DNA of 64,000 bases from an uncultured Actinomycetota bacterium (GCA_964610385.1 CAZSXW010000004.1:21452-85451); one strand, 5' to 3'. Counted from the first letter of the stretch, positions 47,549-54,990 are shown. Numbers and translations are program-made. The notes: generated by a model from the letters alone, not told the origin.

Positions 47549-47623
47549 TCCCCGGTAGCTCAATGGTAGAGCATTCGGCTGTTAACCGAAGGGTTGTAGG
47601 TTCAAGTCCTACCCGGGGAGCCA
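47549..47623 (+). tRNA. tRNA-Asn (anticodon GTT) with encoded CCA
   Basis: A cloverleaf with a 7-bp acceptor stem (TCCCCGG/CCGGGGA), a D-arm (AGCTCAATGGTAGAGC), an anticodon loop CTGTTAA and a T-arm (GGTTCAAGTCC). Confidence 0.9.
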
Positions 47624-47638
47624 ATAAAATTTTGAATT

Positions 47639-47791
47639 CTATAATTTTTTACTACTCATAATAGGTTCTTGGTTCAGCAGTTCTCTATATTCTGCTTTGG
47701 AATAAATAATATCTCTTATAAGATCAGTAAGTTCTCTTAGTTTGTTTGCCTTTTCATCTGGAAACTTCTTAAGAAATTCTTTATAATTTAT
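47639..47791 (-). pseudogene. Start-less 50-codon C-terminal gene fragment ending 16 bp from the tRNA 3' end (gene remnant)
   Basis: The minus-strand frame reads INYKEFLKKFPDEKANKLRELTDLIRDIIYSKAEYRELLNQEPIMSSKKL*, bounded upstream by an in-frame stop with no ATG, GTG or TTG. It is a possible remnant of a gene broken at the tRNA-associated integration site. Confidence 0.3.
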
Positions 47792-47900
47792 CTATGCTCC
47801 TAACGCTTATTTAAATTAGGAGTATATTATAATCACAGTTATAATTATTTGATAATACTAAATATTGGTTATATGATAAGGGACAATTCCGAAATACATT

Positions 47901-48917
47901 ATGCAGGATATAATAGAAAAAAAGCGATTATCTATTCTACAAATACTTCAGAACACAGATGATGTGGCAATAAGTAGCCACAAAATTACACGCAAACTAA
48001 AAGAAATGGGATATAAAATGAGCGAGCGTACTGTGCGTTTTCATCTGCTTTCTTTGGATAAAGACGGCTATACGGAGTATTTTCCAAAAAAAGGAAGAAG
48101 AATAACGGAGAAAGGGATTAACGAGCTATTACTTGCAAGGGCTTATGAAAAGGTGGGTTTTTTATCCACAAAAATAGATAGCATGACCTATAGTATGCAC
48201 TTCGATATTTATAAGAAAGAAGGCACTGTTGTTATAAATTTGAGCTATGTAAAACTGAAAGATATAAAAAAGGCATGGCCGTTGATGTGTAAAGTACTTG
48301 AAAAAAGACTTGGCATGGGCAAATTCCTTGTTTTCTTTAAACCGGGGGAAAGAATAGGACAGGCCACTGTTCCTGAAGACTGTATAGGCATAGGAACTGT
48401 CTGTTCCATAACTATTAACGGTATCCTTCTCCAGCATGGAATCCCCATAAGATCGAGATTCGGGGGCCTTCTAGAGATACGGAAAAATAAACCAAACCGG
48501 TTTGTAGCGATAATTAATTATGACGGAACGAGTTTAGATCCTCTTGAAATATTCATAAAAAGCGGTATGACGAATTATATACAGGCAGTAAAAAACGGCA
48601 ATGGTTTGATAGGTGCGAGTTTCAGAGAGATGCCATCGGACAGCAGAAGCCAAGTTGAAGATATCGCAGAAAAGATAGATGCAATAGGATTGGGCTGCTT
48701 TATGAAGATTGGTTATCCCGGTAAAAGTCTGTGTGAAATTCCTGTTAATGACGGTAGTTTTGGTTCAATAATAATCGGCGGTCTGAATCCCATAGCTATT
48801 TTGGAAGAATACAGAATAAATGTGCAGTCCAAAGCTCTTTCCTGTCTGATAGATTATAAAAAACTCTTTCCTTATACGGAAACGGAAAAAAGACTGAAAT
48901 CAATTCTTAATAAATAA
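47901..48917 (+). CDS. NrpR-like nitrogen regulatory repressor (N-terminal winged HTH plus one NrpR/DUF128 domain)
   Basis: 338 aa. The architecture and sequence resemble euryarchaeal NrpR. The genomic context (GltB-like protein, amt, glnK directly downstream) matches an NrpR regulon. Confidence 0.5.
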   Translation: MQDIIEKKRLSILQILQNTDDVAISSHKITRKLKEMGYKMSERTVRFHLLSLDKDGYTEYFPKKGRRITEKGINELLLARAYEKVGFLSTKIDSMTYSMHFDIYKKEGTVVINLSYVKLKDIKKAWPLMCKVLEKRLGMGKFLVFFKPGERIGQATVPEDCIGIGTVCSITINGILLQHGIPIRSRFGGLLEIRKNKPNRFVAIINYDGTSLDPLEIFIKSGMTNYIQAVKNGNGLIGASFREMPSDSRSQVEDIAEKIDAIGLGCFMKIGYPGKSLCEIPVNDGSFGSIIIGGLNPIAILEEYRINVQSKALSCLIDYKKLFPYTETEKRLKSILNK

Positions 48918-48959
48918 TACTCTTTTTTAAAAATCCCAGGATTACATTATAAAATTTAC

Positions 48960-49016
48960 TTGACAGCACTTCTTTATGCTCATATTATTGTGGCAATGAA
49001 TTACCACAATAATATT
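48960..49016 (+). promoter_or_regulatory. Strong sigma-70 promoter (TTGACA, 17-bp spacer, TATTAT) overlapped by a perfect 12-bp inverted repeat (ATATTATTGTGG, 10-nt spacer, CCACAATAATAT)
   Basis: TTGACA lies at 48960-48965 and TATTAT at 48983-48988. The palindrome at 48982-49015 has a classic repressor-operator geometry and lies 24 bp upstream of the GltB-like gene. Confidence 0.55.
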
Positions 49017-49039
49017 AAAAATCATAGGAGGTTAAATAA

Positions 49040-53086: not shown

Positions 53087-53159
53087 GACTATCAGCGAGA
53101 GGACATCTATAGAAAGTGTAAGGAATTTCATGCAAAAAGGGTGTTAGAAATTAGGCCTG

Positions 53160-53197
53160 TTGTCTAAACCACCCGAAAAAGCGGTTTTCTTAGACAA
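53160..53197. repeat. Nested inverted repeat downstream of glnK (TTGTCTAA acc accc GAAAA agcgg TTTTC TTAGACAA); candidate terminator or protein-binding site
   Basis: Read directly from the sequence. Confidence 0.35.
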
Positions 53198-53395
53198 TAT
53201 TTATAAAAAACTTCTAACTAATATTATGTCTGGATCAGTTTTTGAGGAGAAGGGCAATTGTTAAATCTTTTAAAACTCAATTCAAGAATAAAAATATCTC
53301 CATTTAAGCTTAATGGTTTGGTTTTAACTTTGTCTCCAATGCCCTAAGATTTACATCATCTCATTATTTAATTTATGGTATATATTAGTGTCTAA

Positions 53396-53425
53396 AGTTC
53401 TAAAGGCGTCCAATACGGGGAGCCA
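53396..53425 (+). repeat. Degenerate copy 2 of the tRNA-Asn 3' half (att-like)
   Basis: AGTTCTAAAGGCGTCCAATACGGGGAGCCA matches copy 1 at 29 of 30 positions. Confidence 0.5.
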
Positions 53426-53593
53426 GAGATTTTTATTTGGCTTTCCCAAATTCCGGAGCAGCCAGCCCCCTAACAGTGGTAGGCCTTCATATCTTCCCAG
53501 TTGTAGAGTAGTCTTTGTAACAATTTATGTAAAAGATAGTCAAATATAATGGGAATTTAAAATATTTTTTATGTAAAGGATATAGTTGTTGAT

Positions 53594-54895
53594 ATGTCAC
53601 TAATAGATTTTTCAAGAAATAAGATTAAGAAACTATTTACTAAGGAAAGCAATATAGTACTTAAAAATAATGTTCCTGCTTACGAGAGTCTTGAATATAA
53701 GTTTGATGATATAGACGAATTCGGGCTTTATCTTCATGTTCCTTTTTGTAGGCAAATTTGCTCATATTGTCCTTATAATAAGGAGATTTATAAACCCGAA
53801 TTAGCAAAACTTTATACAAAGGCTGTAAAGAAGGAAATTGATTTCTATAGTACGCTTTTTAGTGGAAAGCCTGTAACATCATTCTATATTGGTGGCGGTA
53901 CTCCCACAACTATGCTTTACAGTGGGATTTCTGAGATTATAGAATATATATATAGAAATTTTAATATGCAGTGTGGTATACATATAGAAAGTCATCCTAA
54001 TGACTTAAATAATAATAATCTCAATACTATAAAATCTCTCGGCATAAAATACCTGAGTACAGGAGTAGAAGCTCTTGATGATAAATACCTAAATTTTCTT
54101 AATAGACCATATAATACTAAAGAAGTAAAGGAAGTAATTGAAAGAGTAGTCAGTAAAGGATTTAAATGTTTTAATGTAGACTTCATTTTTGCTTTACCTG
54201 ACCAGTCATATAGCGAGATAGAAAAGGCAGGCCATGAGTTAGTTAAAATGGGTGTGAATCAGGTAGCAGCTTATCCATTCTTTAAATTTCCATATACTAA
54301 AATGGGCGGAAATTCTGATGAAAGCAATTACAGTATATCAACAATATTTAGAAGACGTAAAATGTTAAGCATCCTCGAAAATATTTTCTATAATTCTGAT
54401 TTTGAGAGAACTTCTGTCTGGGCATTCACAAAAAAGGGAATATCAAAATATTGTTCTGTAACTGTGCCTCTTTATGTTGGCATTGGTGCTAGTGCTGGAA
54501 CATACCTAAAGGATATTTTTTATTTAAATACTTTCAATGTTTCTGAGTATACTACTGTTATGAATAGCGGAAAGCCACCAATTGCCTTATCGCTTGATCT
54601 TTCAAGAAACATGCAGATGGCATGGTGGTTTTACTGGAGAGTATATGAAACTAGATTTAAGAGAAGCGATTTTAAAAAAAGATTCGATGTGCAGTTTAAT
54701 AAAATATATGGAAAATATATTAAATTATTTTCTTTATTTGGTTTTATAAAAAACGATAATAAAGACCAAATAATTCTTTCAGATAGAGGTTCATACTGGT
54801 TGCATGCAGTTGAAGACCTGTTTTCATTAAACTATATAGGTAAGTTATGGGGAACTTCCAAACAAGAACCCTGGCCTAAAATGGTAGAATTGTAA
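53594..54895 (+). CDS. Radical SAM protein, HemN-like (oxygen-independent coproporphyrinogen-III oxidase family)
   Basis: A CxxxCxxC motif (CRQICSYC) and an HemN-type GGGTPT motif. GC is about 29%, lower than its neighbours. Confidence 0.7.
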   Translation: MSLIDFSRNKIKKLFTKESNIVLKNNVPAYESLEYKFDDIDEFGLYLHVPFCRQICSYCPYNKEIYKPELAKLYTKAVKKEIDFYSTLFSGKPVTSFYIGGGTPTTMLYSGISEIIEYIYRNFNMQCGIHIESHPNDLNNNNLNTIKSLGIKYLSTGVEALDDKYLNFLNRPYNTKEVKEVIERVVSKGFKCFNVDFIFALPDQSYSEIEKAGHELVKMGVNQVAAYPFFKFPYTKMGGNSDESNYSISTIFRRRKMLSILENIFYNSDFERTSVWAFTKKGISKYCSVTVPLYVGIGASAGTYLKDIFYLNTFNVSEYTTVMNSGKPPIALSLDLSRNMQMAWWFYWRVYETRFKRSDFKKRFDVQFNKIYGKYIKLFSLFGFIKNDNKDQIILSDRGSYWLHAVEDLFSLNYIGKLWGTSKQEPWPKMVEL

Positions 54896-54960
54896 TAGAA
54901 TTAAAAAGATGAAATTTGCTCCCATTTATCTTCAAAATTAGGAAGTTCATTAAAGTAAAA

Positions 54961-54990
54961 AGTTCGAAATGTATCTACTAAGGGGAGCCA
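54961..54990 (+). repeat. Degenerate copy 3 of the tRNA-Asn 3' half (att-like)
   Basis: AGTTCGAAATGTATCTACTAAGGGGAGCCA matches copy 1 at 23 of 30 positions. The left flank TTAAAGTAAAA also matches copy 1 (TTAAAATAAAA). Confidence 0.4.

Follow-up and report, generated by a model that had tools for sequence, protein, structure and literature searches.

Three short repeats lie downstream of a tRNA-Asn gene, in the orientation of that gene, in a stretch of 64,000 nucleotides (nt) from an uncultured Actinomycetota bacterium (GCA_964610385.1 CAZSXW010000004.1:21452-85451; the whole stretch is called the window, and positions are counted from its first letter). The interval from 47.5 to 55.0 kb is, with high probability, an island anchored at this tRNA-Asn gene, in which the repeats are attachment scars of integration by a large serine recombinase (LSR). 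In particular, each repeat encodes, on the minus strand, part of the C-terminal tail of an LSR, and ends in a short core in common with the tRNA's own 3′ end.

The repeats are C-terminal tails of a large serine recombinase

The sole tRNA gene of the window is tRNA-Asn(GTT) at 47549-47623 (+), identified by both ARAGORN and Rfam, and is directly preceded by dnaG and rpoD. The 30-mer at 51005-51034 (copy 1) is found again at 53396-53425 (copy 2) with one mismatch, where the chance expectation is none; copy 3 (54961-54990) is degenerate, and copies 1–3 form a 77-nt direct-repeat family with identities of 100, 77, and 68%. Across the 64 kb there are exactly four occurrences of GGGGAGCCA, of which one closes the tRNA and one lies in each copy, always on the plus strand; the expected number is 0.48, and none of 100 shuffled sequences reached four. 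A previous reading of the window, made by a model from the sequence alone (the sequence-only reading), had described a tRNA-Asn gene followed by three co-oriented, intergenic repeats, copies 1 and 2 agreeing at 29 of 30 positions, that bound distinct gene blocks. All of this holds, with Pfam annotation identifying the blocks as nrpR and a Glu_synthase-domain gene, amtB-glnK, a radical SAM gene, and a PadR block. The same reading had regarded the repeats as degenerate copies of the tRNA 3′ half. Only the terminal 7–10 nt of each repeat are truly common to the tRNA, and the best alignment of copy and tRNA requires a 5-nt gap between a T-loop-like GTTC and GTCC...GGGGAGCCA; the sequence left of the core is instead the P arm of an attachment site (attP), and consists of the coding sequence of an LSR C-terminal tail.

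A scan with the pattern GTTCNAAANNNNTCNANTANGGGGAGCC, covering one genome per species for 185,579 species, matched 103 stretches across many phyla, in genomes labelled as candidate phyla radiation (CPR)/Patescibacteria groups, Atribacterota, Actinomycetota metagenome-assembled genomes (MAGs), Methylomirabilota/Rokubacteria, Myxococcota, Chlamydiota, Bacteroidota, Pseudomonadota, and others. Read on the minus strand, every copy gives (W)-L-P-[LVI]-[LVIM]-D/E-x-F-R/G-T, followed by 10–40 codons and a stop; in the three repeats of the window, W-LP-x-x-D-x-F-R-T continues for about 15–35 codons, and no start codon is present. The NGA codon is TGA in 0 of 108 copies. Differences beyond the searched pattern number 147, 110, and 240 at the three codon positions in the Atribacterota family and 470, 330, and 700 in the GC-rich family, while the 57 nt upstream, serving as a control, are flat and free of codon-position bias. 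Conservation is absent 5′ of the W codon, where a stop is often immediately adjacent, and a profile search of 5.8 billion proteins with the fragments retrieved only "hypothetical proteins" of 35–70 amino acids (aa) with unrelated N-termini. Avoidance of TGA, third-position bias, lack of upstream conservation, and unrelated N-termini therefore identify the repeat as a start-less C-terminal gene fragment. A small-protein family was considered and rejected, since the 35–70-aa open reading frames (ORFs) are artefacts of gene calling around fragments that lack a start. Purifying selection was likewise set aside as the source of the third-position bias, and the bias is not used as a sign of present function, because it is explained equally well if the parental LSR genes had already diverged when integration took place. 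The motif scan of viral contigs gave one match only, indicating that the elements are not typical phages.

The sequence-only reading had also considered co-option of the repeats as a regulatory element. In its general form, this explanation would make the repeat a regulatory motif, whether in DNA or in RNA (an operator, small RNA, or leader), of nitrogen-related and other operons, with a coincidental likeness to the tRNA. Nitrogen genes do make up two of the flanked blocks (nrpR/gltB-like and amtB-glnK), and no copy lies within a gene; nevertheless, the explanation is hardly credible. Across 47400-55400, the tRNA is the sole Rfam match, both at the gathering threshold and at E<=1, with no structured RNA or riboswitch; the repeats lie 66–325 nt 3′ of the preceding gene, at cassette 3′ ends, and 150–470 nt 5′ of the next gene, in no constant relation to gene starts; this motif also stands beside unrelated cargo in other genomes (toxin-antitoxin, ABC transporter, and defence genes); and the motif carries an opposite-strand coding signature and is the end of an LSR ORF. 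Sigma-54 and sigma-70 promoters, a Shine-Dalgarno sequence with a small ORF, CRISPR, and attC were rejected by inspection, on the grounds of misfit in spacing and orientation and of no conserved start codon.

The parent gene is identifiable in other genomes. In loci L022 and L081, an ORF of 503–508 aa terminates in the fragment; its product has the domains of an LSR (Resolvase, Recombinase, and Zn_ribbon_recom; PF00239, PF07508, and PF13408) and belongs to a family with >2688 homologues at E<=1e-20. A family profile matches the C-terminal domain of the A118/LI integrase (4kis/6dnw, E 4e-10) and the catalytic domain of TP901-1 (3bvp, E 6e-12); a phmmer search of the PDB with a single LSR found nothing, and the profile was needed. 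An AlphaFold (AF2) model of the LSR has predicted local distance difference test (pLDDT) values of 80–95 to about residue 490 and a low-confidence tail, and is thus uninformative on tail function.

Alignment of the C-termini of 120 LSR homologues reveals a conserved end, ...SExxEKRxLLNFLLQN..L.GKKLxFxLKTPFD..., followed by one of two classes of tail. The first class, the native tail, reads LPxxDxFRTxxW..., and the second reads LRG(Q/W)DSN(L/P)RPxGY or shorter and is the antisense of the tRNA acceptor and T arm; specifically, its DSN is GAT TCG AAC, the T-loop in antisense. Protein P0113, for 97% of its length identical to the LSR of L081, nevertheless has the tRNA-antisense tail. At the DNA level, locus L106 is identical to L081 rightwards from GGAGCCA, while leftwards L106 has the tRNA T-arm and L081 the tail, so that the two loci present hybrid junctions of attL/attR type (tRNA joined to LSR end in L106, tail joined to the same LSR end in L081). 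The two-state tails and the L106/L081 junctions locate attP within the LSR gene's 3′ end and would place the crossover in the last 7 nt of the tRNA. The tail type of the window, LPLVDTFRTFYFNEF..., is tied to LSRs by P0240 and P0252, which are short ORFs at contig ends. Both came from a profile search run exhaustively against 1.84 billion representatives, which otherwise gave fragments only; in both, a conserved LSR end (...EQKRQLINxLLSN...KPF...) runs through W into LPLVDTFRTFYF.

Elements in other genomes show LSR genes beside tRNA genes. Locus L105 contains a complete 9.9-kb element, in which a 510-aa LSR reads into tRNA-Asn, a tail fragment lies at the other end, and the cargo consists of genes typical of mobile elements. 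In L105 and L106, the genes 5′ of the LSR encode a DNA methylase, a helix-turn-helix (HTH) protein, a DUF87 ATPase, and ImmA, but not a further, small serine recombinase. A tRNA-Asn is also adjoined by a degraded LSR end (...KPFDVPARASKC, a stop, then NW) in L103. Among 20 tRNA-bearing loci of the scan, 18 have the tRNA 5′ of the motif in the same orientation (12 tRNA-Asn and 2 tRNA-Gln), and tRNA-Gln ends in the same GGGAGCCA as tRNA-Asn. In the target tRNA-Asn of L105 (~11480-11800, -), the anticodon loop is interrupted by a group I intron, and ARAGORN missed this tRNA, so that ARAGORN-based counts of tRNA association are underestimated for CPR-like genomes. Separately, L062 has, at 1529-1794, a tRNA-Asn with a tail fragment and core just 162 nt beyond it, a near-empty attL-attR pair that is possibly the residue of a deleted element.

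These loci also bear on the idea that the repeats are decayed tRNA 3′-half duplicates left by classical tyrosine-integrase islands. The topology fits, with a tRNA followed by co-oriented partial matches having the same 9–10-nt end, and the tyrosine-integrase route is the commonest mechanism at tRNA genes (PMC4383910). The idea is nonetheless very improbable: the sequence left of the core is not tRNA but a conserved coding tail, at a fixed 5-nt offset, in >100 loci; the gene adjoining the tRNA in complete elements encodes a serine, not a tyrosine, recombinase; and none of the examined loci has a tyrosine integrase.

Variability of the tRNA-Asn island

The island comprises the tRNA-Asn gene and three cassettes, each ending in a scar, followed by a conserved element:

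47549-47623 (+): tRNA-Asn(GTT) with encoded CCA (ARAGORN; Rfam, 74.3 bits)
47614-47623 (+): core CGGGGAGCCA within the tRNA-Asn end
47624-51034 (+): cassette 1, 3.4 kb, with ORF remnant, nrpR, Glu_synthase-domain gene, and scar 1
47642-47791 (-): start-less ORF remnant of 50 codons, unidentifiable, adjoining tRNA-Asn
47901-48917: nrpR (Pfam NRD1_2, 1.5e-79)
49040-50680: Glu_synthase-domain gene (Pfam Glu_synthase, 1.5e-17)
50921-51034 (-): scar 1, start-less LSR C-terminal tail fragment, WLPVLDAFRTFYFNKSTDLKDG...
51006-51034 (+): scar 1 P arm GTTCTAAAAGCGTCCAATAC and core GGGGAGCCA
51035-53425 (+): cassette 2, 2.4 kb, with BrnA-like remnant, amtB, glnK, and scar 2
51050-51192 (-): BrnA-like antitoxin remnant
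51508-52746: amtB (Pfam Ammonium_transp, 3.6e-125)
52748-53086: glnK (Pfam P-II, 2.9e-28)
53354-53425 (-): scar 2, truncated LSR tail fragment, WLPVLDAFRTLDTNIYHKLNNEMM
53397-53425 (+): scar 2 P arm and core
53426-54990 (+): cassette 3, 1.6 kb, with diverged copy of a ~70-nt element, radical SAM gene, and scar 3
53594-54895: radical SAM gene (Pfam Radical_SAM, 5.6e-20)
54904-54990 (-): scar 3, LSR tail fragment, WLPLVDTFRTFYFNELPNFEDKWEQISSF
54962-54990 (+): scar 3 P arm and core
54997-55065 (+): conserved ~70-nt element GTCTCTTCACCAACAAACGAGGTAACCCACTC..., just right of the last core (fuzzy search)

An intact tRNA and three co-oriented sites with a common terminal 9–10 nt are the arrangement by which Islander recognizes tDNA islands (PMC4383910), although the tRNA-derived common part is much shorter here than in typical tyrosine-integrase islands. 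All three cassettes have att-type flanks and are free of recombination and transfer genes, as in an array of cis-mobilizable elements (CIMEs). A promoter-like sequence, TTGAAA-16-TATAAT, lies upstream of the tRNA-Asn at 47500-47527.

The order dnaG-rpoD-tRNA-Asn is common to the window and to L012, L025, L042, L043, L053, L074, and L082, at ~76% nt identity. These seven relatives, from MAGs labelled Actinomycetota, diverge from the window immediately 3′ of the tRNA and have different cassettes, comprising ABC transporter, AbiE-like, HEPN/MNT-like, and BrnT/BrnA-like genes, membrane proteins, and others (ORFs judged by eye), and not one invariant gene order. The sharpest comparison is with L053: window positions 51025-51188, comprising the copy-1 core and the flank with the BrnA remnant, are 86.7% identical to the L053 tRNA 3′ end and its flank, while to the left of this core the two part, with the tRNA in L053 and the LSR tail in the window. 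This orthology of the flanks, a second hybrid junction pair, reveals a 3.4-kb insertion, cassette 1, in the window relative to L053. In a further genome, an intact BrnA ORF adjoins a tail fragment of this kind (P0248).

The radical SAM cassette, third in the window, lies directly 3′ of tRNA-Asn in L074 (1975-3375, 82% identity), and is 80% identical to L017 1384-2741. L017 also aligns with the end of cassette 2 (window 53078-53425, 94% identical to L017 1-348), and has ~1 kb extra between its copy-2-equivalent core and the radical SAM gene. The L053 insertion, the moving radical SAM cassette, and the extra segment in L017 define the locus as a hotspot. By blastn, equivalents of scar 1 are found in L025, L093, L026, L042, and L043, and scar 3 matches L025, L093, L026, L053, L042, L074, and L041. 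The sequence-only reading had proposed repeated site-specific integration at the tRNA 3′ end, with attR-like sites bounding the cassettes; the L053 flank, the variable relatives, and the recombinase-tRNA-Asn elements elsewhere support that proposal. Its suggested check of composition had a mixed outcome: the radical SAM gene is of low GC content (0.31, with 0.244 at third codon positions, GC3, vs GC3 of 0.31–0.43 in its neighbours), but is the sole compositional outlier, the other cassette genes not being atypical.

Logan contig L114, from another sample (SRR14802572), corresponds exactly to window 47566-51033, i.e., cassette 1; it begins inside the tRNA and stops 1 nt short of the end of the copy-1 core. 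These ends suggest an assembly-graph branch at the att cores, through population polymorphism or a circular form. Look-ups of the exact RpoD and NrpR proteins of the window gave short contigs only. On contig CAZSVM010000005.1 (16001-40000, comprising L025, L074, and L041), two rpoD-like genes 5.9 kb apart are each followed by a tRNA-Asn, and both tRNA-Asn genes are trailed by cassettes and tail fragments; the rpoD-tRNA module was either duplicated or brought in with an element.

The ~70-nt element has a consensus of GGCTCTTCACCAACAAACGGGGCAACCCGCTC(C)TAACAGCATAGTGCTTTAACTCTCAACCTGTAG, and a diverged copy lies at ~53438-53510 in cassette 3. It is found 9–45 nt right of many cores, and once directly 3′ of a tRNA-Asn; fuzzy search locates it in L003, L012, L017 (389), L025 (6441), L032, L063, L074 (1864), and L093, and window 54913-55051 is 76% identical to L025 6349-6491. 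In Atribacterota loci, a rho-independent terminator occupies the position held elsewhere by this element. A structured RNA was rejected, as covariation support is absent, and an LSR 3′ remnant was rejected after no hidden Markov model (HMM) match and an unconvincing DNA alignment. The element may be the tRNA-proximal end of a cassette and, speculatively, might supply a new tRNA trailer.

Other features of the window stand apart from the repeats. A perfect 10-nt inverted repeat, ATTATTGTGG-N10-CCACAATAAT, at 48985-49014, 5′ of the Glu_synthase-domain gene, follows a promoter-like site at 48960-48988, has a related copy inside nrpR at 47963-47988, and is a candidate NrpR operator. A 28-nt inverted repeat of ACGATATAACG units at 55071-55131, just 5′ of padR, is a candidate PadR operator. 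A thiamine pyrophosphate (TPP) riboswitch is present at 23491-23601 (-) (Rfam RF00059, 69 bits).

A proposed mechanism of integration

In the mechanism that we propose, the tRNA-Asn is the integration target, supplying the B arm and the core, and attP would lie within the LSR gene's own 3′ end. Read in antisense, the W-L-P codons TGG-CTC-CCC would provide the ...GGGGAG-CCA end of the tRNA, and the x-x-D-x-F-R-T codons would provide a T-arm-like sequence. The attB site would thus have the form B-core-B′ (tRNA T-arm and acceptor, then downstream flank), and attP the form P-core-P′ (tail codons, then end of the LSR body). Crossover by the LSR would take place inside GGAGCCA, the interval to which the comparison bounds it, and would leave the tRNA intact; symmetry of the right half-site is not evident. 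One product would be tRNA-core-P′, in which the LSR body lies beside the tRNA and reads antisense into it, and the other would be P-core-B′, in which the last ~30 LSR codons and the core are stranded at the far end of the insert. The window repeats would be such P-core far-end scars, delimiting three cassettes, of which the tRNA-proximal cassette 1 would be the most recent arrival. The LSR genes would since have been lost by deletion, and the cassettes are probably immobile unless an LSR acts in trans.

The spacing of the two arms is consistent with this scheme. From GTTC(NAA) to the CCA end, every scar measures 29 nt and the tRNA measures 24 nt, a 5-bp offset between attP and attB; in LSRs, the motif bound by the zinc-ribbon domain (ZD) is 5 bp nearer the centre in attB than in attP (Rutherford et al. 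2013, PMC3783163). The offset fits recognition of both arms by a single protein, with the motif as the putative ZD site. Because the P arm resembles the tRNA arm, with a T-loop-like GTTCNAA 5 bp farther out, the sequence-only reading saw a degenerate T-arm.

Several observations weigh against our reading of the island. First, no LSR gene or detectable LSR remnant is present in the 64-kb window (tblastn, C-terminal HMM) and Pfam annotation of the island ORFs gives no recombinase, in agreement with the sequence-only reading and at variance with the integrase expected inside an Islander island; with no LSR left in the window, the cassettes are classed as integrase-less and CIME-like. Second, the elements that delivered the cassettes are not seen directly: the start-less remnant adjoining the tRNA, which the earlier reading had rightly noted, has no Pfam match and no homologue. 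Third, a full-length LSR with the window-type tail is absent among the 1.84 billion representatives, which hold only the C-terminal pieces P0240 and P0252. Fourth, the fragment family of the window itself has a weak codon-position signal (386/321/394). Fifth, the local alignment of copy and tRNA 3′ half, a check that the sequence-only reading had called for, scores 25, against maxima of 21–26 in 20 random 64-kb sequences, and is not significant alone; the significance of the repeats comes instead from the repetition of the 9-mer, the co-orientation, and the comparative data. Sixth, the cassettes are not fixed units across relatives: after the radical SAM gene, L074 has further genes and no scar. 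Finally, canonical LSRs recombine attP with attB only, which leaves a second entry at an occupied site, and hence tandem arrays, unexplained. Loose requirements for B′, trans-mobilization of internally deleted elements, accretion, and homologous recombination are possible routes to an array.

A more active alternative is that the LSR-less cassettes constitute an integron-like system, in which each cassette retains both att arms, with the tail fragment on one side and a conserved element or terminator on the other, and an LSR encoded elsewhere excises cassettes and returns them in trans either to the tRNA or to an LSR gene's 3′ end, in the latter case restoring the LSR C-terminus. We consider this unlikely, with evidence on both sides. 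Same-strand arrays of 2–4 fragments with no nearby LSR occur in 19 loci, L107 having four fragments in 8 kb; L034 has an LSR-less 2.6-kb segment between the LSR's own tail and a second tail; the ~70-nt element, or the Atribacterota terminator, follows most cores; the ends of L114 at the tRNA and the copy-1 core suggest a graph branch; and the tails retain open reading frames of similar length. However, the third-position bias of the tails may be inherited from parental LSR divergence before integration, the window fragments are degenerate relative to the family consensus, recombination of like site with like site is not canonical for LSRs, no observed circular junction backs excision of a cassette, and the window and L074 do not have the same cassette boundaries.

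Our preferred account of the window is that scarred cassettes have lost their LSR genes. More tentatively, and with the odds against it, the comparisons raise the possibility of a widespread LSR clade whose attP, in its own last ~30 codons, mimics the tRNA acceptor and T-arm at +5-bp spacing, and whose members are spread over CPR/Patescibacteria, Atribacterota, deep Actinomycetota, and numerous further uncultivated phyla; the swap from native to antisense-tRNA tail could act as a built-in switch of integration state and directionality, and internally deleted derivatives could form integron-like, trans-mobilizable cassette arrays behind tRNA-Asn, the nitrogen cassettes of the window included.

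Significance and relation to known systems

According to a survey published in 2015, tRNA genes were not among the known targets of serine integrases (PMC4383910), and we found no description of a tRNA-Asn-targeting LSR clade in the literature searched; apparently, a large LSR clade aimed at the tRNA-Asn 3′ end is undescribed. For the window, our analysis offers an explanation of a variable hotspot beside dnaG-rpoD-tRNA-Asn in a poorly known bacterial lineage, in which genes of nitrogen regulation and ammonium uptake would ride on former mobile cassettes. The window feature itself is probably a relic, but points to a widespread and readily exploitable integrase/att family. Because attP would be the gene's own tail, natural attB/attP pairs should be readable from genomes; such pairs show the 5-bp offset between half-sites that LSR structures predict, and could serve as ready-made integrase/att pairs for phyla that are hard to engineer. 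Fragments of the form W-LP-x-x-D-x-F-R-T provide a simple signature for island boundaries in MAGs.

Among known systems, integrons resemble the island in having promoter-independent, same-orientation cassettes divided by a recombination-site repeat, but differ in using the IntI tyrosine recombinase, attI, and attC hairpins; here, no tyrosine recombinase and no conserved hairpin in the repeat were found, and the repeat is a coding tail with a tRNA-end core. Classical CIMEs derive from tyrosine-integrase integrative and conjugative elements (ICEs), unlike the LSR-linked cassettes here. SSV1-type archaeal integrases are tyrosine recombinases with attP inside the gene, and integration splits off an N-terminal piece. 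In likeness to these and to Mx8 IntP (a tyrosine recombinase that uses tRNA-Asp and has attP inside the integrase gene; cited in PMC4383910), integration here at a tRNA would alter the integrase ORF; in contrast to both, the enzyme here is a serine recombinase that would lose a C-terminal tail of ~30 codons. As arrays, the cassettes are like CIMEs in having att-type flanks, lacking integrase and transfer genes, and standing in tandem (concept as in PMC3146451). As attachment sites, the scars and the tRNA end are like those of the A118/LI integrase, in which an outer motif is present in both half-sites and is 5 bp closer in attB (PMC3783163), compared with 24 vs 29 nt here, where the motif is the putative ZD site. 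Tycheposons and the tRNA-anchored islands of Prochlorococcus resemble the island here in integrating at tRNA genes, with newcomers pushing older elements inward, and in having scattered partial-tRNA scars, fragmented integrases, and nutrient (nitrogen) uptake cargo (Hackl et al., bioRxiv 10.1101/2020.12.28.424599). They differ in that 910 of 937 tycheposon-type elements have tyrosine recombinases, the scars are true partial tRNAs, and the hosts are of another phylum (bioRxiv 10.1101/2020.12.28.424599).

The closest described analogue is provided by the ssrA islands of Dehalococcoides, with the serine recombinase DsiB (McMurdie et al. 2011, PMC3146451). The ssrA islands target the T-loop of the transfer-messenger RNA (tmRNA) and have a 20-bp repeat, while the target here is tRNA-Asn (sometimes tRNA-Gln), with a proposed crossover in the last 7–10 nt; of the six genes in the Dehalococcoides module, one encodes a further, small recombinase, DsiA, while the gene content upstream of the LSR in L105 and L106 includes no DsiA-like gene; and the overlapping tail of DsiB was judged non-functional and divergent (PMC3146451), while the native tail here is conserved in amino acid sequence across phyla. 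On target and gene content, therefore, the elements described here are not ssrA islands of the Dehalococcoides type. The architecture, however, is the same in four respects (PMC3146451): the ssrA islands stand in tandem 3′ of a tRNA-like gene, whose 3′ end recurs at their borders as short direct repeats; DsiB, of ~540 aa, is encoded on the reverse strand beside attL, with the 3′ end of its ORF always overlapping attL; an extra conserved motif, not alignable to the target gene, lies left of the repeat; and 15 of the islands have no integrase and were read as cis-mobilizable elements.

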